Assembly: GCA_964589955.1 (NCBI GenBank)
Contig: CAZPVF010000001.1
Location: 1 to 62,008, forward strand
Direction of reading: 5' to 3'
Source of the DNA: Candidatus Woesearchaeota archaeon
GTDB taxonomy: Archaea > Nanobdellota > Nanobdellia > Pacearchaeales > GW2011-AR1
DNA: 62,008 nt
Position 1 is the first letter of the stretch; the number at the start of each line of letters is the position of its first letter. Under the pieces are notes generated by a model. That model was not told the DNA's origin and did not search any database. It saw only the letters and a list, made by a program, of their open reading frames with translations. Positions 3,361 through 55,674 of this stretch are shown here, piece after piece. A program made the position numbers and the translations under genes.

Positions 3361-3591
3361 ATGACAGCAAGTGATTGGAAAAAAATACTAAAACAATTAA
3401 ATAAAAAACCTGCAATAAAAGCTAAATTTCTAAAGCATTGCAAACCAAAAACAAGAAAGATAGGAATTGCTTCAAGAAAATGTGAGAGATGTGGAAGATT
3501 TGGGGCACATATAAGATCTTATGGTCTTAAATTATGTAGACACTGTTTTAGGGAAATTGCTGAAGAAATTGGGTTTAAAAAATATAGCTAA
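3361..3591 (+). CDS. rps14: 30S ribosomal protein uS14 (zinc-binding type)
   Basis: [25 protein letters not shown] CxxC...CxxC motif; position between uL5 and uS8; N-terminal extension relative to typical archaeal S14. Confidence 0.9.
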
Positions 3592-3602
3592 GGAGAATAA
3601 AA

Positions 3603-3983
3603 ATGAGTCACGATGTTGTTGCTGATGCATTAAATATGATAAAGAATGCAAAAAAAGCTAAAAAGAAGACTGTAAAAATCAAAAGGATTTCAAATCTTTT
3701 AGTGGAAATTTTAAAAATTATGAAACAAAAAGGTGCAGTAAAAAAATATAAGATTGACAGTAAAGAAAAAACTGTTGAAATAACAATTGGAGAATTATTT
3801 GAGTGTAAAGCAATTAAACCTAGATTCACAGTTAAAAAAGATACAATTGAAAAGTATAGAAGAAGGTATTTGCCTGCAAGAAATATTGGTACTGTTATTA
3901 TTTCTACAAACAAGGGTCTTATGACCAACGAAGAAGCTCAAGAAGAAAAAATTGGAGGATGCTTAATTGCATATTTTTATTAA
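3603..3983 (+). CDS. rps8: 30S ribosomal protein uS8
   Basis: DVVADALNMIKNAKKAKKK...GTVIISTNKGLMTNEEAQEEKIGG. Confidence 0.9.
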   Translation: MSHDVVADALNMIKNAKKAKKKTVKIKRISNLLVEILKIMKQKGAVKKYKIDSKEKTVEITIGELFECKAIKPRFTVKKDTIEKYRRRYLPARNIGTVIISTNKGLMTNEEAQEEKIGGCLIAYFY

Positions 3984-4931: not shown

Positions 4932-5335
4932 ATCTAAAAAAGAAAAAAAATTTAGTAGCAAAAACACTTAAGGTAGGAAGAAATAGAATTGTTTTTGTTA
5001 AAGAAAGGTTAGATGAAGTAAAAGAAGCCATAACAAAACAAGATATTAAACAAAGACATCAAGAAGGTGCTATTGCTATTAAAAGCATAAAAGGAAGGAA
5101 AAAAGTTGAAGGAAGAAGGAGGAAAAGAGGAATCGGAAAAATAAAGAAAAAAATAAACACTAGAAAAAAGGACTATGTTATAATGACTAGAAAATTAAGA
5201 GAGTACATAAAAGAATTAAAAAAACAGGGCAAAATATCTGCTGAAGAAGTAAAAGACATTAGAAAAAAAATTAGAAATAAATTTTATAGAAGCAAATCAC
5301 ACTTAAAAGAACAACTAAACTTAAGAAAAAGATAA
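4928..5335 (+). CDS. rpl19e: 50S ribosomal protein eL19
   Basis: LKKKKNLVAKTLKVGRNRIVF...QDIKQRHQEGAIAIKSIKGRKK. Confidence 0.9.
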   Translation: MNLKKKKNLVAKTLKVGRNRIVFVKERLDEVKEAITKQDIKQRHQEGAIAIKSIKGRKKVEGRRRKRGIGKIKKKINTRKKDYVIMTRKLREYIKELKKQGKISAEEVKDIRKKIRNKFYRSKSHLKEQLNLRKR

Positions 5336-7993: not shown

Positions 7994-9427
7994 ATGGACT
8001 TTACAAAAATATTTAGCTTTATACCAGAAGTAAAAAAACCTGAAGAAAAAAAAGTTAGTTTTAAAGTTAAAATCAAGTGGACATTATTAATCTTAGCTGC
8101 CTTTTTCATTTTAGCAAACATTCCTCTTTTTGGTTTAAGTGAAAATGCTCTTTCTCGTTTTGAATATCTAGCTATTATTTTAGGTACTGATTTTGGAAGC
8201 ATTATTTCTTTAGGTATTGGTCCTATTGTTATGGCTTCTATTATATTGCAACTTTTAACAGGATCTGGAATACTTAATATTGACACAACAACACCTCAAG
8301 GAAAAAGATTCTTTCAAGGACTACAAAATGTCTTAGTGTTTTTCTTCATAATATTTGAAGCAATAGTTTACGTTTTAATGCAAGGACTTCAAGCAGCTCC
8401 AGGATTTACAGGATTAGTAATATTTCAGCTTATACTTGGAGGTATAGCAATATTTTATATGGATCAAGTAACTCAAAAATGGGGATTTGGTTCTGGAGTT
8501 AGTTTATTTATTGCTGCAGGAGTATCTTGGAGACTATTTACAAGTGCACTTCAATTTACAACACAACAAGGAAGAAACTGTTTGCTTGATTTCAAAAATA
8601 CACCTTGTTCAGGAAAAATATTAATTTTAATTCAATCAATAATTAATAAATATCCTACAGAGTTGTTAGCAGCTTTAGTTGCAATAATTACAACTATTTT
8701 AATTTTCTTAGCAGTAGTTTGGGCACAATCACTAAAAGTAGAAATTCCACTATCATTTGGAAGGATTAGGGGATACAGTGTAAAATGGCCTTTATCTTTC
8801 TTTTATGCCTCAGTTATTCCAGTCATTTTAACTGCAGCACTAATGGCAAATGTTCAGTTATTTGGAGGGATGTTTGAAAATGCAGCAATAGCCTGTGCAG
8901 AAGGAACTTGTTCTGGCTTTCAGAGTATAGCTGCCCACTTTTCTTTTTTAGGAAGTTTTGTTAACGGGCAGGCAGTATCAGGACTAGCTTTTTGGATGGG
9001 TTCAACAAATCTTGTTGATTTAGCTATAAGAGGAGGTCTTTTACCAAAGTATTTGCTTCAGGGATTAACACACATATTATTCTTTATGGTCTTTTCCACA
9101 CTCTTTAGTGTATTCTGGGTAAAAACATCTGGAATGGATTCAAAAGCTCAAGCTAAAAAAATTTCTGCTTCTGGACTTCAAGTAGCAGGATTTAGACAAG
9201 ACCAGAGAATACTTGAGCACATTCTAGATAGATATATTATGCCTCTAACAGTAATGGGAGGTGCGGCAATAGGTCTTCTAGCTGCAGCAACAGATCTAAT
9301 AGGTGCGCTAGTTTCTGGAACATCAATACTTTTAGTTATCATGATAATGTTCCAATTTTATCAAAATATTGCACAACAACATGAAACAGATATGAATCCC
9401 GGATTAAGAAAATTCATTGGGAGATAG
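7994..9427 (+). CDS. secY: preprotein translocase subunit SecY
   Basis: 477 aa, about 10 TM segments, LGIGPIVMASIILQLL plug/TM2 motif; conserved position after uL15. Confidence 0.95.
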   Translation: MDFTKIFSFIPEVKKPEEKKVSFKVKIKWTLLILAAFFILANIPLFGLSENALSRFEYLAIILGTDFGSIISLGIGPIVMASIILQLLTGSGILNIDTTTPQGKRFFQGLQNVLVFFFIIFEAIVYVLMQGLQAAPGFTGLVIFQLILGGIAIFYMDQVTQKWGFGSGVSLFIAAGVSWRLFTSALQFTTQQGRNCLLDFKNTPCSGKILILIQSIINKYPTELLAALVAIITTILIFLAVVWAQSLKVEIPLSFGRIRGYSVKWPLSFFYASVIPVILTAALMANVQLFGGMFENAAIACAEGTCSGFQSIAAHFSFLGSFVNGQAVSGLAFWMGSTNLVDLAIRGGLLPKYLLQGLTHILFFMVFSTLFSVFWVKTSGMDSKAQAKKISASGLQVAGFRQDQRILEHILDRYIMPLTVMGGAAIGLLAAATDLIGALVSGTSILLVIMIMFQFYQNIAQQHETDMNPGLRKFIGR

Positions 9428-46013: not shown

Positions 46014-46421
46014 ATGGTTGAGAAAAAAATAGTCACGTCAGGAAAAAGAAAAGCAGCAATCGCTAGAGCAATTTTAACAGAAGGAACAGGAAAAGTAATG
46101 ATTAATAAAAAAAACTATGAAACACTCACAATTTTTGATAAGTTAAAAATTGAGGAACCACTAAGAATTGCTAAACAAATTCTTGGCGAATTAAAATTCG
46201 ATGTAAAAATTAGTGTAAAAGGTGGTGGAGAAAAAGGCCAGATTGAGGCTGCAAGAGTTGCACTATCAAGAGCAATAGTTAATTTTTCTAAGTCTAAAGA
46301 ACTACAAGAAGCATTCATGGAGTATGATCGAAATATGTTGGTTGCTGATGTAAGAAGAAAAGAAGCATACAAACCAGGAGATAGTAAAGCAAGAAAAGCA
46401 AGACAAAGTTCTAAGCGTTAA
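46014..46421 (+). CDS. rps9: 30S ribosomal protein uS9
   Basis: TSGKRKAAIARAIL...GGGEKGQIEAARVALSRAIV...VRRKEAYKPG...ARKARQSSKR. Confidence 0.92.
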   Translation: MVEKKIVTSGKRKAAIARAILTEGTGKVMINKKNYETLTIFDKLKIEEPLRIAKQILGELKFDVKISVKGGGEKGQIEAARVALSRAIVNFSKSKELQEAFMEYDRNMLVADVRRKEAYKPGDSKARKARQSSKR

Positions 46422-46428
46422 ATTAAAT

Positions 46429-47067
46429 TTATTTCTTTATCCCTAATTCTTCCAACTTGTTTTGAACATGATTAAACAATGTAGATGAAATTAGTGCTTG
46501 GTGTGTTCCTTTATGGGTTTGTTTATCAAATTTAATTTTCCCTAAATAAGTCTGATTCATTAAAATTTTTTTTAATCCATTTACACTAAACCCGTATTTT
46601 TTTGCTAGTTTTGTTAAAGAAATTTTTTTGTTTAAAAAATCTTCAAAAATTTCTGGAACAATATATGAAGTATTTTCGTTAGCGACCAAGTTGCCACCAA
46701 CAATTTTGTATCCATAAGGTGCTCTTGTGACAATACTGCCGTTTTTTGATTTATTGAGCATTCCTTTTTTTGTTCTTTTTGAAACAGATTTAGAGGATTT
46801 TCTAAAAGTATCAAGAATTCTCCCATCTATCTTTTCCGCAATGTATTTCTCGAAATCAACTTCATCATCAGGAGAAAAATAATGGCATATAGAACAAAGA
46901 GTAATTAAATTGCCAATTTCATCATTCCCTCCATCAACCCTCATCTTTATGTGGTGTACTTCTAGCTCATCAGAACGCAGCCTGGAACCGCACTTTTTAC
47001 ACCTGTATCCATCCCTAGAAAAAACTTCAGTTTTTTTCTTAAAAGAAAGTGTTGTTTTTTTAGACAT
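46429..47067 (-). CDS. HNH endonuclease domain fused to a serine-recombinase-type 'Recombinase' domain (no resolvase catalytic domain)
   Basis: N-terminus: [10 protein letters not shown]...[26 protein letters not shown]-terminus: [16 protein letters not shown]...[20 protein letters not shown]...[13 protein letters not shown]...[14 protein letters not shown]. Confidence 0.65.
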
Positions 47068-47079
47068 TTTACATATTAT

Positions 47080-47907
47080 CTACATATTATCAATAGGGGA
47101 TTTTATTTTTTTTAATTCTTCTGTTGAAACATGTGTGTAAATTTGGGTGGTAGATAAGTCTGCATGCCCAAGAAGTGTCTGTATATATCTTATATCGGTT
47201 CCATTTTCTAGCAAATGTGTTGCAAAACTATGTCTTAGTGTATGTGGGCTTACTTTTTTGTTAATATTTGCTTTTTTTGTAGCAATTCTTACTATTTTTT
47301 GAATATTCCTATCAGAAAGTTTTCCTTTTGGGCCAGTGAAAAGAAACTCTTGTTTTAACTCCTTTTGTTGTTGTGTTTGTCTTTTTAATTTTGATTCTAA
47401 AAACTTAGGAATATTAAATACTCTATCTTTTCTTCCTTTTGCCTGCCTAACATATCCAATCATTTGATCAAAATCAAGATCAGATATTTTTAGATTGACT
47501 AACTCTGAAACTCTAAAACCACAAGCATAAATTAAAGAAACCATTAATTTGCTTTTTTTTGTAGGAAGTGCTTCAAAAAGTTTTTTTATTTCTTTTTTTG
47601 TCAAAACATCTGGAAGTTTTTTTTCTCTTTTTGGTCTTTTTATGCCCTGTGTTACATCTTTTTTTAAAATATTTGAATAACTATACTTTATTGCTGCTAA
47701 AAATAAAATTATACTCATAGAAGCCTTGTGGGCAATTTTTTCAGCCATGAAAACCTTAACATCATCTTCTGTTATATTTTCTGGAATCTTTTTAGAAAAA
47801 TCTAGGAGCTCTTTATTTGCTTTAAGATAATTTTTGATAGTGTAATTAGAATTTTTTGAAATTTTTAATTCTGTTTTAAGTTTATTTAAAAATTCTTGGG
47901 GAGTCAT
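47080..47907 (-). CDS. tyrosine recombinase/integrase (XerA/XerCD family)
   Basis: ACGFRVSEL, HTLRHSFATHLL, LLGHADLSTTQIYTHV give the R..HxxR..H..Y catalytic set. Confidence 0.88.
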   Translation of the reverse strand: MTPQEFLNKLKTELKISKNSNYTIKNYLKANKELLDFSKKIPENITEDDVKVFMAEKIAHKASMSIILFLAAIKYSYSNILKKDVTQGIKRPKREKKLPDVLTKKEIKKLFEALPTKKSKLMVSLIYACGFRVSELVNLKISDLDFDQMIGYVRQAKGRKDRVFNIPKFLESKLKRQTQQQKELKQEFLFTGPKGKLSDRNIQKIVRIATKKANINKKVSPHTLRHSFATHLLENGTDIRYIQTLLGHADLSTTQIYTHVSTEELKKIKSPIDNM

Positions 47908-48404
47908 TTTAGATTTTTAATTAAGTAGTTGCACTTTTCACTAATTCTTTTTAATTTTTTATTATGTAATTCTTGCCAAGAATCAAGAACAATCCCTTTT
48001 TTCCAATCTTTGTAACCTAACTTTTCATAAAGATTGTTTAGAAACTTGTTATCTTTTTCAACAGACAAACCAACTCTTTTGTATCCTTTTTTCTTTACTA
48101 ATTTCTCAGCGTATTTCATTATTTTTTTTGCTATACCTTTCCTTCTAAACTTAGAATTAACATAAAGCGTGCTTAAATGAGGGCATCTTTTAATTTGCTT
48201 TCTAATCTTCTTAACTTCTGAATTTTTGAAAGTTATCTGAATATGTCCTACTGGCAATTTATCTTGCCAAGCAATTAACCACACACTATTGCCTTTAATT
48301 TGTTCTGCTAAATTTTTGCCGTGAAGCCAGGGAACAGCAGAATCAAACATCTCTTTATACAAAATTTCAAGATTTTGTTTTTTAATTGGTCTTATTTTCA
48401 CCAT
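47904..48404 (-). CDS. GNAT family N-acetyltransferase
   Basis: FRRKGIAKKIMKYAEKLVKKKGYKRVGLSV acetyl-CoA binding motif A. Confidence 0.8.
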   Translation of the reverse strand: MVKIRPIKKQNLEILYKEMFDSAVPWLHGKNLAEQIKGNSVWLIAWQDKLPVGHIQITFKNSEVKKIRKQIKRCPHLSTLYVNSKFRRKGIAKKIMKYAEKLVKKKGYKRVGLSVEKDNKFLNNLYEKLGYKDWKKGIVLDSWQELHNKKLKRISEKCNYLIKNLK

Positions 48405-49333
48405 TCTACACCTAATTTTTTTAATTCATTTAAGAATTTTTTATGGTCTTTGTAAACAATCCCACATTCATGCACTTTTCTTGCTACTTTTATATTTCTT
48501 AAAAAATCATCAACAAAAACAGACTCTTCAGGTTTAGAATTTATTGTTTTTAATACTAAATTATAGATTTTCTTGTTGGGTTTTCTTAAATTAACATCGC
48601 AGGACCAAATTATGTTATGTTTGGGAAAAGGTTTGGTTATCCCTTTAGAAATTAGCCATTTTTTGTGTCCCTGACTCATATTTGACAAAATTGCTAGCTT
48701 ATACTTTTTCCTTAGTTTTTTTATTAACTTTAGCATTGGTTTATTTGGTGTAAAAATTAAGTTCCATAGTTTAGACATTTTTTTAGAATCTACTGAACTA
48801 ATATTTAATTCTTTAGAAAATTGTTTCCAATATTCCTTTTCTAGTGGAGCTAATTCTGCCATTCTCCAAAATTTTGTATTTTTTGCTGATCCTTCTAATA
48901 CTTTTTTAATTTTTTTAGCAGAAATACCAGTTTCTTTTTCCATGGCTCTTGCTGCATTCATATGATCATAAAAATACTGTACACCTCCAACATCAAAGAT
49001 AATTGTGGTTATTTTAGAATTTTGCCTAGTTCTACAATTTTTGCATCTTTTTTTTAGTTCTTTTTCGTTTTCTTTTATATTTATTTTCCCTGCTCTAAAT
49101 GACTTAAATTTAGGAAGAGGAGAATTATGAGAATATCCTCTTCTTTTCATTTCTTTAACAAGCTCTTTATGTCTTTTTCTAATATTATGAACTTCTACTT
49201 GTCCTTTATCTAAATGGCCATTAATGCTCTTATTTTTGTTTAAACTTCCTACAAGTTGATGTAACTCTTTGTGTTCACCTAATAAATGACTTCTGCACAT
49301 CTTTTTTGGATCTACCATCCACATTCTTGTCAT
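48398..49333 (-). CDS. fusion protein: T4 endonuclease V-like (pyrimidine-dimer glycosylase/DUF1722-like) N-domain plus HAD-superfamily hydrolase C-domain
   Basis: N-terminus: MWMVDPKKMCRSHLLGEHKELHQLVG. C-terminus: IIFDVGGV...LAILSNMS...VFVDDFLRNI HAD motifs I-III. Confidence 0.5.
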   Translation of the reverse strand: MTRMWMVDPKKMCRSHLLGEHKELHQLVGSLNKNKSINGHLDKGQVEVHNIRKRHKELVKEMKRRGYSHNSPLPKFKSFRAGKINIKENEKELKKRCKNCRTRQNSKITTIIFDVGGVQYFYDHMNAARAMEKETGISAKKIKKVLEGSAKNTKFWRMAELAPLEKEYWKQFSKELNISSVDSKKMSKLWNLIFTPNKPMLKLIKKLRKKYKLAILSNMSQGHKKWLISKGITKPFPKHNIIWSCDVNLRKPNKKIYNLVLKTINSKPEESVFVDDFLRNIKVARKVHECGIVYKDHKKFLNELKKLGVEW

Positions 49334-49950: not shown

Positions 49951-50610
49951 ATGAATGAGATAAGAAATATATTGAAGTTCTCGCTAAAAGCTTTTGCAAC
50001 AACACCTGGAGAAGTAGAATTTCCACTAAAAATACAAAAACAGGGCCTAGGAATAGATAGTAATGTGCTAAAAAACCTTAGAGGAAAAAAAGTATTTAAT
50101 CCTGCTTGTGGGAGCGAGGGTATTTTAGTTGAATATTTAAGAGAAAAAGGAGTATTAGCAGATGGAATGGATCCGAGACTAAAAAATCCTAATGGGTATT
50201 TGGAAAAAAGGCTTATTTCAGTTAATTATTCTGGAAAAGGTTCAATACCAAAACAGGATAACTATTATGATTATATTTACTCATATGCATTTGGACAATT
50301 ATTTTACCCTTTTTCTGGACTAACTTTTGCTAAAGAGCATTGGGGAACACAACTTGATTCATCATTAATCCTAATGGATTTATTGAGAGTTTTAAGACCA
50401 AGTGGAAAGATCATATCCTATCCAGGGATGGTTGAATTATCAGAAGAGTTTATGGGTATTGGAGCACCCCAAATTTCAATTGAAAACGAAGTTGCTTATC
50501 ATAACATAGATAAAATTATTGGAGAAAAGAAAAACAATTATGCTGGAATCCCAGAACTTGAACAGTGCAAAGAAACAATAAAACACAGGACAATTATAGC
50601 CAAACTTTAA
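49951..50610 (+). CDS. class I methyltransferase-fold protein (divergent)
   Basis: VFNPACGSEGIL (motif I-like), ADGMDP, YDYIYSYAF, LLRVLRPSGKII. Confidence 0.45.
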   Translation: MNEIRNILKFSLKAFATTPGEVEFPLKIQKQGLGIDSNVLKNLRGKKVFNPACGSEGILVEYLREKGVLADGMDPRLKNPNGYLEKRLISVNYSGKGSIPKQDNYYDYIYSYAFGQLFYPFSGLTFAKEHWGTQLDSSLILMDLLRVLRPSGKIISYPGMVELSEEFMGIGAPQISIENEVAYHNIDKIIGEKKNNYAGIPELEQCKETIKHRTIIAKL

Positions 50611-50611
50611 T

Positions 50612-50625
50612 TTTGTGCACAAAGG
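50612..50625. repeat. right copy of the 14-nt direct repeat, TTTGTGCACAAAGG (also a perfect 12-bp palindrome TTTGTGCACAAA)
   Basis: Begins 2 nt after the stop codon of the 49951-50610 gene. Confidence 0.6.
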
Positions 50626-50668
50626 TAACCTAAGTATCTGTCGAAGATGTGTCTTACTGTTTGTTTTA

Positions 50669-51975: not shown

Positions 51976-52716
<741 letters not shown>

Positions 52717-53570: not shown

Positions 53571-53831
53571 TTAAATTAAGTCTTCTTCAGAAACAATTAC
53601 AAAATCTCCAATAGCGATAATTGCGCTGTATGGGATAAGAAAGTCGTTTGAGGAAGTCTTTTCTAGATTAAGATTTTTTGTGTAGATTGTTGATTCTTTC
53701 ACAACAATATTTATTAGCTCTCCTGATCTTGTCTCAAAAGTTATATCTTTAACAAACCCTAATCTTTTACCCTCCTTTGTTACAATCATCTTACCTAAGA
53801 GAACATTAAATGGATTTTTGTTATCTTGCAT
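53571..53831 (-). CDS. PRC-barrel domain protein
   Basis: 86 aa; LLGKMIVTKEGKRLGFVKDITFETRSGELINIVV...IPYSAIIAIGDFVIV. Confidence 0.7.
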   Translation of the reverse strand: MQDNKNPFNVLLGKMIVTKEGKRLGFVKDITFETRSGELINIVVKESTIYTKNLNLEKTSSNDFLIPYSAIIAIGDFVIVSEEDLI

Positions 53832-54462: not shown

Positions 54463-55674
54463 ATGGCAACAGAGTTAGATCAAATATTTGAATCTTTTAG
54501 TAAGAATAGTGTGTTTAGAGATAAGAGCCTTCTACAGATAAATTATAAACCTAGCGAAATTGTTCATAGAGATGATCAAATAAAGCAGATAGCTTCAATT
54601 CTTGCACCTGTATTAAGAGGAGAAAAAACAAGTAATTTGTTTTTGTATGGGAAAACAGGTACAGGTAAGACTTTATCAGTACAATACGTTAAGGATGAGT
54701 TATTAAAAAGAGCTAGTAAGAAGATAGATCATAAGTTAAGAATAGAGTATTTAAACTGCAAATTAAAAAAAGTGTCTGATACTGAGTATAGAATTTTAGC
54801 TGAATTAATTAAAAAATTAGGAGGGGATGTTCCTGCTACTGGTCTACCTACTGAGGCTGTCTATAACAAATTTATTGATATAATTGATTCAGAAAAGCAG
54901 CTGTTGGTTTTGGTTTTGGATGAAATTGATCAGACTGTAAAGAAAATATCTAGTGATTTTTTGTATAATTTAACTAGGCTTAATTCAGAACTTTCTAAAA
55001 CACAAATTTGTATTGTTGGAATAAGCAATAATTTAACTTTTTTAGAAGAACTTGATCCTAGGGTAAGAAGTTCACTATCTGAAGAGGAGATAGTATTTCC
55101 ACCTTATAATGCATTACAACTGCAAGAAATACTTAGCATAAGAAGTGACGGAGCTTTCAAAAAAGGAGCTGTTGAGCAGGGAGCAATAGCAAAATGTGCA
55201 GCATTTGCAGCAAGAGAGCACGGAGATGCTAGAAGGGCACTCGATTTATTAAGAATTGCTGGAGAATTGGCTGAAAGAGGAAATTCAAAGAAGATTTTAT
55301 TAAAGCACATAGATGAAGCAAATGAAAAGCTCGAAAAAGATAAGATTCTGGATGTAATAAGATCTGAGCCTAAACAATTTCAACTTGTTTTGTACTCTAT
55401 TATGGTATTAAGTGATAAAAATAAAGATACGCCTTTTTTTACTGGAGATGTTTATAATTTTTATCAGGATCTTTGCGAAAAAAATAAATTAGAGGTTTTA
55501 ACACAGAGAAGAGTTAGTGATATTATTCAGGAGTTTGATATGTTGGGAATAATTAATGTTAGGGTTATTTCAAAAGGAAGAGGGGGCAGAATGAGAGAGA
55601 TTAGACTGGTTATATCAAAAAATATTTTGAAAAAGGCTAGAGAAATAGTTGAAGAATCTATAGATTATAAATAG
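54463..55674 (+). CDS. cdc6: Orc1/Cdc6 replication initiator
   Basis: LYGKTGTGKT Walker A, LVLVLDEID Walker B, sensor regions, C-terminal winged helix. Confidence 0.93.
   Translation: MATELDQIFESFSKNSVFRDKSLLQINYKPSEIVHRDDQIKQIASILAPVLRGEKTSNLFLYGKTGTGKTLSVQYVKDELLKRASKKIDHKLRIEYLNCKLKKVSDTEYRILAELIKKLGGDVPATGLPTEAVYNKFIDIIDSEKQLLVLVLDEIDQTVKKISSDFLYNLTRLNSELSKTQICIVGISNNLTFLEELDPRVRSSLSEEEIVFPPYNALQLQEILSIRSDGAFKKGAVEQGAIAKCAAFAAREHGDARRALDLLRIAGELAERGNSKKILLKHIDEANEKLEKDKILDVIRSEPKQFQLVLYSIMVLSDKNKDTPFFTGDVYNFYQDLCEKNKLEVLTQRRVSDIIQEFDMLGIINVRVISKGRGGRMREIRLVISKNILKKAREIVEESIDYK

Follow-up and report, generated by a model that had tools for sequence, protein, structure and literature searches.

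Architecture of the HNH-RD protein

This study concerns a small gene in an archaeal DNA stretch of 62,008 nucleotides (nt; the whole stretch is hereafter called the window), contig CAZPVF010000001.1 of the Candidatus Woesearchaeota archaeon assembly GCA_964589955.1, which comprises 795 kb in 95 contigs and is 88% complete. The gene, an intact open reading frame (ORF) with an ATG start, lies on the minus strand between the operon of ribosomal protein uS9 and a tyrosine recombinase gene and encodes 212 amino acids (aa). A reading of the DNA without database searches (the sequence-only reading) had described the product as an HNH nuclease fused to the Recombinase domain (RD) of large serine recombinases, and this architecture, hereafter HNH-RD, is real. 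Pfam hidden Markov models (HMMs) for both parts exceed their cut-offs: HNH (PF01844) at residues 23-62 (E 3.6e-11, 43.5 bits vs. a cut-off of 21.4) and Recombinase (PF07508) at residues 145-207 (E 5.6e-8, 33.4 bits vs. 21.1). The features of the locus are collected in Table 1.

The HNH motif was found to be complete, as the sequence-only reading had also stated, with both CxxC pairs present (C23xxC26, H38-H39, N53, C58xxC61-H62). In a sequence search of the PDB, residues 12-75 resembled the HNH domain of HfmIscB, and the structural matches of the head in Foldseek were the Gme HNH nickase (4h9d) and McrA (6ghc). The NCBIfam IscB model was matched in its HNH part alone (positions 178-266 of 314, 53 bits vs. 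a cut-off of 175); kinship with IscB as such was rejected because only this module matches. By sequence, HNH-RD is a bona fide member of the HNH family.

For the C-terminal part, residues 116-209 matched the RD of the A118 integrase in the PDB sequence search (4kis, 6dnw). Positions 127-247 of the NCBIfam model CcrA align with residues 91-204, so the similarity to serine recombinases begins ahead of the Pfam RD, in the region of helix alphaE. A monomer model was built with AlphaFold2 (AF2) on 32 homologs. It reached a mean predicted local distance difference test score (pLDDT) of 81.8, with the head (residues 10-78) and the RD (residues 115-210) predicted confidently. The top Foldseek match of this model was 4kis_A, the LI integrase-DNA complex (E 6.6e-7, root-mean-square deviation 2.5 A over 122 columns, 29% identity), and full-length serine integrases were also among the best matches. 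The C-terminal ~120 residues of the model superpose on the DNA-bound RD of the LI/A118 integrase.

The Pfam scan gave no Resolvase (PF00239) match in the 212-aa protein, whose residues 1-80 are occupied by the HNH domain, and no Zn_ribbon_recom match either; the C-terminus lies 5 residues past the Pfam RD match. Likewise, no Resolvase domain was detected above cut-off anywhere in the assembly. Between head and RD, residues 66-110 and the alphaE region ..ISAFAEFERNVTGERTKFSM.. of the Resolvase-headed proteins that relatives encode at this locus align column for column. Within this stretch, residues 84-110 are the alphaE candidate, which AF2 renders as two short low-confidence helices, and the segment ..S-K-R-T-K-K-G-M.. 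is conserved.

Table 1. Features of the HNH-RD locus (positions refer to the window; res, residues of HNH-RD)
Feature	Position	Strand	Basis and remarks
HNH / alphaE-like / RD gene (type A)	46429-47067	-	ORF call; Pfam HNH and Recombinase above cut-offs
HNH head, res 12-65	46873-47034	-	Pfam HNH; PDB and Foldseek matches
Linker and alphaE-like helix, res 66-110 (FSPDD..EKIDG. and the 20 residues that follow)	46738-46872	-	Alignment to alphaE of Resolvase-headed proteins
RD, res 111-212	46432-46737	-	PF07508; A118/LI integrase RD by sequence and fold
uS9 gene, last of the L18e-L13-S9 operon	46014-46421	+	ORF and homology; convergent to HNH-RD, 7-nt gap
XerA tyrosine recombinase gene	47080-47907	-	NF040815 (XerA_Arch), 237.8 bits vs. 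cut-off 220; 12 nt upstream of HNH-RD, same strand
GNAT acetyltransferase gene	47904-48404	-	Pfam; ORF overlaps of 4 and 7 nt in this gene set
Pyr_excise + HAD fusion gene	48398-49333	-	Pfam
23-bp palindrome TGCACTAAG-GGGAG-CTTTGTGAA	49872-49894	+	Candidate binding site; pattern search
Second palindrome copy TGCACAAAG-GTAAC-CTAAGTATC	50616-50638	+	Same orientation as first copy

Genomic neighbourhood

Four minus-strand genes that overlap or nearly abut follow one another in the order Pyr_excise+HAD, GNAT, XerA and HNH-RD and form an apparent operon, with HNH-RD at its end. The neighbour that had been read as a tyrosine recombinase passes the curated archaeal XerA model; it is the sole XerA of the genome, the only other match to the model reaching 104 bits. 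It is the housekeeping XerA, in a conserved operon, and not the integrase of a mobile element. The short gap to the uS9 operon noted in the sequence-only reading was borne out as well, with the two genes converging. Elsewhere the window carries RpoN, the L18e-L13-S9 genes, cdc6/orc1 (54463-55674) and PolD, and HNH-RD lies ~7 kb from cdc6/oriC.

The first gene of the apparent operon joins a pyrimidine-dimer glycosylase domain of the T4 endonuclease V type (Pyr_excise, residues 3-73) to a HAD hydrolase. HAD genes recur at the HNH-RD locus in relatives, and the HAD part is there usually a separate gene of ~210 aa.

Distribution and inheritance

By word-indexed search at least 1474 homologs were retrieved; they measure about 210 aa and have the two-domain layout of the window protein, and the best 120 are nearly all 204-233 aa long with both domains. 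Homologs are labelled Candidatus Pacearchaeota and carry the automatic names ‘HNH endonuclease’ or ‘site-specific DNA recombinase’. No characterised member was found, and literature searches on the combination of HNH with a serine-recombinase RD returned no published description of it. An exhaustive search of a 50%-representative library (1.8 billion representatives) found 13 clusters at E<1e-30, which shows that the family is narrow.

To survey closer relatives, 101 genomes of the same GTDB family, each of another genus, were searched with profiles, and loci were fetched from 20 genomes. All genomes are metagenome-assembled genomes of 60-100% completeness, so that absences are soft; ORFs were called by us, and types in genomes that were not fetched were assigned from HMM coordinates and ORF lengths. 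The HNH-RD/RD family is present in 70 of the 101 genomes, and the window genome holds one copy. The homologs share a neighbourhood across contigs, consisting of cdc6, small genes, a recombinase gene, HNH-RD and then the convergent S9-L13-L18e genes. Identity to the window proteins runs in parallel for HNH-RD, XerA and S9, at 69%, 73% and 72% in locus L001, 70%, 77% and 73% in L011, and 45%, 64% and 55% in L036. Because identity tracks that of the neighbours, and the gene is single-copy with fixed synteny in many genera, it is vertically inherited and not a sporadic element.

This pattern bears on the possibility that HNH-RD is a selfish or defensive nuclease that acts site-specifically and on its own, for instance as a free-standing homing endonuclease, with the RD used for targeting only and no functional link to the neighbouring recombinase. 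It is essentially what the sequence-only reading had proposed. Joining a nuclease to a sequence-specific DNA-binding domain is the established layout of HNH and GIY-YIG homing endonucleases, the closest HNH relatives of the head reside in mobile elements (IscB, group II intron maturases), and gene content between the winged-helix gene and xerA differs among relatives. On the other side, a homing endonuclease or mobile element was rejected on copy number, on the fixed synteny and on the way the gene diverges together with XerA and S9 across many genera. The family is also narrow, and a recombinase gene always precedes the RD-family gene, at loci away from S9 as well. For defence, PADLOC gave generic HNH-region matches only (DpdF, ZorE), and four neighbouring proteins tested against it had zero matches. 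We therefore regard a stand-alone nuclease as improbable. The variable region upstream of xerA contains in one relative (L034:3880-4317) a separate 145-aa gene for a zinc ribbon and HNH, and the RD protein of that relative is headless.

A constant body with different heads

Alignments and Pfam scans revealed four forms of the family that share the C-terminal ~130 aa (window residues ~84-212) at 50-69% identity to the window protein. Type A, to which the window protein belongs, carries the HNH head and measures about 210 aa. Type B/B' (255-265 aa) bears a Pfam Resolvase domain (136-148 bits) with the catalytic motifs R-V-S-T and D-R-F-S-R. In type C (173-183 aa) the body is preceded by a Cys4 stub that lacks the HH...N core and retains the same FSPD..EKIDG..L.TFRK linker, Recombinase being its only Pfam match. 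Type D (133-148 aa) consists of the body and a short leucine-zipper-like coiled coil; the N-termini of these headless forms give weak bZIP/leucine-zipper-like matches. Head and body meet just before alphaE, where the type A segment beginning with EKIDG. (a further 20 residues) aligns with SGKLMFHIISAFAEFERNVTGERTKFSM of type B.

The sequence-only reading had suggested that HNH stands in place of the resolvase catalytic domain, and the Resolvase-headed relatives at the same locus, built on the homologous body, bear this out. Resolvase-headed and HNH-headed bodies are 60-83% identical (64-80% over the C-terminal 129-135 aa). The closest pair, a Resolvase-headed protein in L029 and an HNH-headed protein in L039, reaches 83% over a 115-aa body, and the headless genes beside these two copies are 82% identical to each other. 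Since these values match, bodies of equal age bear unrelated heads. When the bodies were placed in a tree, types C and D grouped in a single clade (100/98) beside a type A sequence, and types A and B were intermixed, with the well-supported branches requiring at least 4 changes. Replacement of a resolvase head by HNH on a homologous body is supported for the window lineage by sequence comparison.

The forms can also coexist. A single operon in L039 (1627-4037) encodes the serine recombinase B2 (244 aa), an HNH-RD (207 aa), a HAD protein and a headless coiled-coil RD protein (141 aa), followed by S9. With three RD paralogs side by side, a history of tandem paralogs and gene conversion is as likely as one of repeated head swaps. 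Short Resolvase+RD proteins with the same body are present in many families of the class, according to samples of the order and the phylum. A second family, too, has HNH-like-headed partners next to a B2 recombinase, at loci away from S9, and the HNH motif is degenerate there.

Conservation of the HNH head

Of 114 full-length type A homologs, 99 (87%) retain every element of the CC-HH-N-CC-H motif. Mean pairwise identity among these 114 is 61% for the head and 70% for the RD, the most conserved part, and the four Cys are retained in every homolog whose sequence covers them. Selection was gauged by residue retention, since synonymous sites are saturated at 45-70% protein identity and the ratio of nonsynonymous to synonymous substitution rates is then unsuitable. 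Because the catalytic motif is retained, the nuclease site is under purifying selection in the HNH-headed subgroup that includes the window protein. The head is predicted to be, probably, an active nickase or nuclease.

The same data speak to the view that HNH-RD has no function and is what is left of a serine recombinase gene in decay. Truncated and split forms do exist at related loci, and some copies contain in-frame stops. The window ORF is intact, its body equals ribosomal protein S9 and XerA in conservation, the homologs (at least 1474) are of uniform length, and the catalytic motif is retained. A truncated remnant of a longer recombinase, which the sequence-only reading had named as what would undo it, was rejected on these grounds, and we consider decay very improbable.

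Pairing with recombinase genes

Genes of types A, C and D immediately follow a recombinase gene on their own strand, and this gene is one of three: XerA, B2 or type B'. XerA is directly upstream of an RD-family gene in about 28 genera. The serine recombinase B2 takes this position in L003, L006, L012-14, L027 and L039, and, at loci not beside S9, also in a second family of the class (L042-L044); a type B' protein does so in L028-L030. Where HNH and body are split into two ORFs, an HNH-only ORF remains beside XerA (G023/L033, G091, G025).

Among the 19 genomes with a strong Resolvase-headed copy, 10 have no XerA or just a fragment or pseudogene of it, vs. 5 of the 82 others (Fisher p = 9e-6, uncorrected for phylogeny). 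The ten genomes with a Resolvase+RD gene and no intact XerA are G001, G008, G014, G043, G055, G066, G080, G086, G098 and G100 (loci L023, L028 and L030). In these XerA-less genomes the Resolvase-headed gene generally lies on the upstream side of the C or D gene, the flank usually taken by XerA; some have the two side by side, and in others they are separated by as much as 8.5 kb or belong to different contigs. The simpler rule that XerA is lost wherever a Resolvase-headed copy is present proved only partly true, as several of the remaining genomes keep XerA on another contig.

Gene pairing and the pattern of XerA loss together suggest a two-gene recombination module, composed of a recombinase and an RD partner, in which tyrosine and serine recombinases may have displaced each other. 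It is possible that in the ten XerA-less genomes a serine recombinase has displaced the archaeal chromosome-dimer resolvase in a non-orthologous manner. Archaea are without FtsK, and no partner controlling XerA is known (PMC2958812, PMC8371274).

A palindrome pair as candidate target

Conserved non-coding words around the locus include TTGTGCACTAAGG, which in context is part of a 23-bp palindrome, TGCACWWAG-N5-CTWWGTG(C)A. This pattern occurs exactly twice in the 795-kb assembly, the two copies flanking a methyltransferase-like gene (49951-50610) 2.8-3.6 kb upstream of the HNH-RD gene. It was found in 37 of the 101 family genomes, in 1-3 copies and mostly within a few kb of XerA or a type B gene; a reversed-pattern control gave 4 hits. 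Genomes positive for the RD family carry it in 35 of 67 cases, vs. 2 of 34 for RD-negative genomes (p = 2e-6, uncorrected for phylogeny), and it is kept in 6 of 11 XerA-less RD-positive genomes. The palindrome arms span ~3-11 bp either side of the dyad, which we take to be compatible with the RD-DNA contacts in half-sites of large serine recombinases (4KIS).

Because of the bias towards RD-positive genomes and the persistence in XerA-less ones, the distribution fits the RD family better than XerA as the binder. The search for conserved flanking target sequences proposed by the sequence-only reading has yielded a conserved palindrome near the locus; that the RD binds it is what we hypothesize. 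A XerA dif site was considered for the palindrome and is unlikely as the sole explanation, given its survival in these XerA-less genomes, its 2-3 direct copies and its position beside oriC. Cortez 2010 located dif at a distance from xerA, in the terminus region.

The surroundings of the palindromes are variable. The genes between and around the copies differ among relatives (methyltransferase-like, NUDIX, nucleotidyltransferase, APH and small membrane proteins), which gives the region a cassette- or IMEX-like look. A second conserved palindrome, TAATAAGGG-TT-CCCTTATTA, is found directly upstream of B2 genes, beside a copy of the TGCAC palindrome (L003 ~3590-3640, L006 ~5160-5215, L027 ~8390-8440), and could be a res-like or operator region. 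Two further observations were made between the palindromes and cdc6. A perfect TCTG tandem repeat of ~11 units at 52364-52407, within a winged-helix ORF (51976-52716, minus strand), encodes a TDRQ repeat and is a possible slippage-prone tract. At 53578-53596 there is a 19-24-nt element, TTGTTTCTGAAGAAGATTT, which is near-exact in ~17 loci (among them L001, L003, L006, L021, L022 and L025); it overlaps the end of a PRC-barrel gene (53571-53831) near cdc6 and may be merely conserved coding sequence.

Proposed role of HNH-RD

The interpretation we lean towards, and hold to be somewhat probable, is that HNH-RD is a vertically inherited, recombinase-associated subunit for site-specific DNA binding, in which an HNH nickase or nuclease has replaced the resolvase head, and which acts with the upstream recombinase, the palindrome pair being its likeliest target. 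From the architecture, fold, body homology, synteny, co-divergence, conservation of the catalytic motif and gene pairing that were observed, we infer that HNH-RD binds as a dimer, which site it targets, that it cleaves DNA and that it co-operates with XerA.

The family, which belongs to the Pacearchaeales (Nanoarchaeia), has as its constant part the alphaE helix and RD of a small, roughly 260-aa serine recombinase, and in the window lineage the HNH head, of the beta-beta-alpha-metal and Cys4-zinc type, has taken the place of the resolvase catalytic core just before alphaE. In this proposal, the RD and the linker between alphaE and RD would bind each half of the palindrome, probably as a dimer, since the headless paralogs bear a leucine-zipper-like coiled coil in place of the head. 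Dimerisation may proceed through the alphaE-like helix, the head or both. This would position the HNH head above the middle of the site, in the spot normally taken by the active site of a resolvase, and there it would nick the DNA or, as a dimer, cut it. HNH-RD could then be one of two subunits in a site-specific recombination module encoded by two genes, the other being the upstream recombinase, which would be XerA here and an RD-bearing serine recombinase elsewhere. The likeliest target would be the 23-bp palindrome pair, which is unique in the genome.

Several points weigh against this proposal. Most of the family seems able to do without the nuclease: in a sample of 201 genomes of the order, ~13 have a full-length HNH form, the Cys4-stub and headless forms being by far the most frequent, and among the 120 closest homologs the predicted general base H39 is missing in 12 (and the last His, H62, in 7). 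The inter-domain geometry of the AF2 model is uncertain, with a predicted template-modelling score (pTM) of 0.52 and pLDDT <55 for residues 80-100. Phylogeny confounds the association of the palindrome with the RD, since the RD-negative genomes are a more divergent subgroup, and a winged-helix protein encoded beside the palindromes in 87 of the 101 genomes, RD-negative ones included, could be an alternative binder. The spacer of the palindrome, with its odd length of 5 bp, suits a binding site but does not suit crossover by a serine recombinase. The adjacency to uS9 is inherited synteny, other genes intervening in relatives, and the adjacency to XerA could likewise be inherited without functional meaning; the pairing of B2 with an RD partner outside the S9 locus argues against mere synteny in the latter case.

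Because most relatives have lost the HNH catalytic core yet keep the RD, with a constancy like that of a ribosomal protein, the shared function of the family would be sequence-specific DNA binding, with cleavage added in some lineages.

HNH-RD might instead have a regulatory or architectural role, its head being vestigial. The RD would then bind operator-like palindromes and so repress or organise the locus, and the HNH would serve as a zinc-stabilised dimerisation or structural module that does not cut. The prevalence of a mere stub or coiled coil on the same body would fit such a role, as would the constancy of the four Cys beside repeated loss of H39 and H62. The palindromes, moreover, are promoter-proximal, upstream of genes of the locus and right at the start of B2 recombinase genes. 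The Tn3/gamma-delta resolvase, by analogy, also represses its own operon. The HNH-headed subgroup, to which the window protein belongs, nevertheless keeps all catalytic residues, and an intact motif in 87% of proteins at about 61% head identity is unexpected for a purely structural module. We consider a regulator unlikely, if deserving of attention.

A broader version of the proposed recombination subunit is doubtful and put forward tentatively. Here the alphaE-RD body would be an exchangeable targeting module whose differently headed paralogs act together at one kind of site; in lineages such as that of the window, HNH-RD, and elsewhere a stub or headless form, would have become an accessory subunit by which recombination by XerA is controlled or completed, in FtsK's stead, and in sister lineages a Resolvase-headed copy would have taken over the job of XerA.

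Comparison with known systems

HNH-RD resembles the large serine recombinases (LI/A118 integrase, Bxb1, phiC31) in the fold and family (PF07508) of its RD, in the putative alphaE-like helix ahead of it, in the entry into the RD (..R-A-P-x-G-Y..) and in the motif L-x-N-x-x-Y-x-G-K. Unlike them, it has neither a resolvase catalytic domain nor a Ser nucleophile, lacks the zinc-ribbon domain and coiled coil, and ends right after the RD. Its true parent is the short (about 260 aa) Resolvase + RD recombinase common in the archaeal class.

With IscB/Cas9, the HNH of group II intron maturases and the Gme nickase 4h9d, its closest HNH relatives, the protein shares the Cys4-zinc type of head, which in each of them cuts a single strand. 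The likeness to IscB/Cas9 and the maturases is confined to the ~60-residue HNH module; HNH-RD is without RuvC, RNA guide or reverse transcriptase. As in modular HNH homing endonucleases (I-HmuI) and engineered chimeras with FokI or I-TevI heads, a non-specific or weakly specific nuclease head is tethered to a sequence-specific DNA-binding module. In HNH-RD, by contrast, this module is a serine-recombinase RD, and the gene is vertically inherited, single-copy, paired with a recombinase and located outside any intron, intein or phage.

For the proposed role, the nearest analogy is the Tn3/gamma-delta resolvase at res, where the same DNA-binding body is catalytic at one subsite and architectural or repressive at others, upstream of the recombinase gene. 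The catalytic, HNH-headed and headless paralogs found together in the L039 operon recall this arrangement. The difference is that one protein fills all roles at res, and here they would be split among paralogs, with XerA as the putative partner. As in archaeal XerA/dif systems, the gene upstream passes the XerA model and is the sole XerA of the genome; the nearby palindromes differ from a canonical dif in being close to oriC and present in two copies. As no accessory protein of XerA has been described, the role of HNH-RD with XerA is hypothesized from gene order alone.

Considered by itself, HNH-RD is a predicted modular nuclease and a serine-recombinase derivative; the more novel aspect lies in the interchangeable heads on one body and in the link to XerA. 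In nature it would correspond to the chimeric nucleases and recombinases made by engineering, as the recognition module of a recombinase re-armed with a nuclease, with head exchange documented between close relatives whose bodies are 83% identical. The phyletic pattern makes two questions accessible to direct test, namely how Xer is controlled in archaea without FtsK, and whether a serine recombinase can substitute for XerA in chromosome maintenance. A compact protein of 212 aa and a candidate site of 23 bp make a tractable system for studying how an RD recognises DNA.

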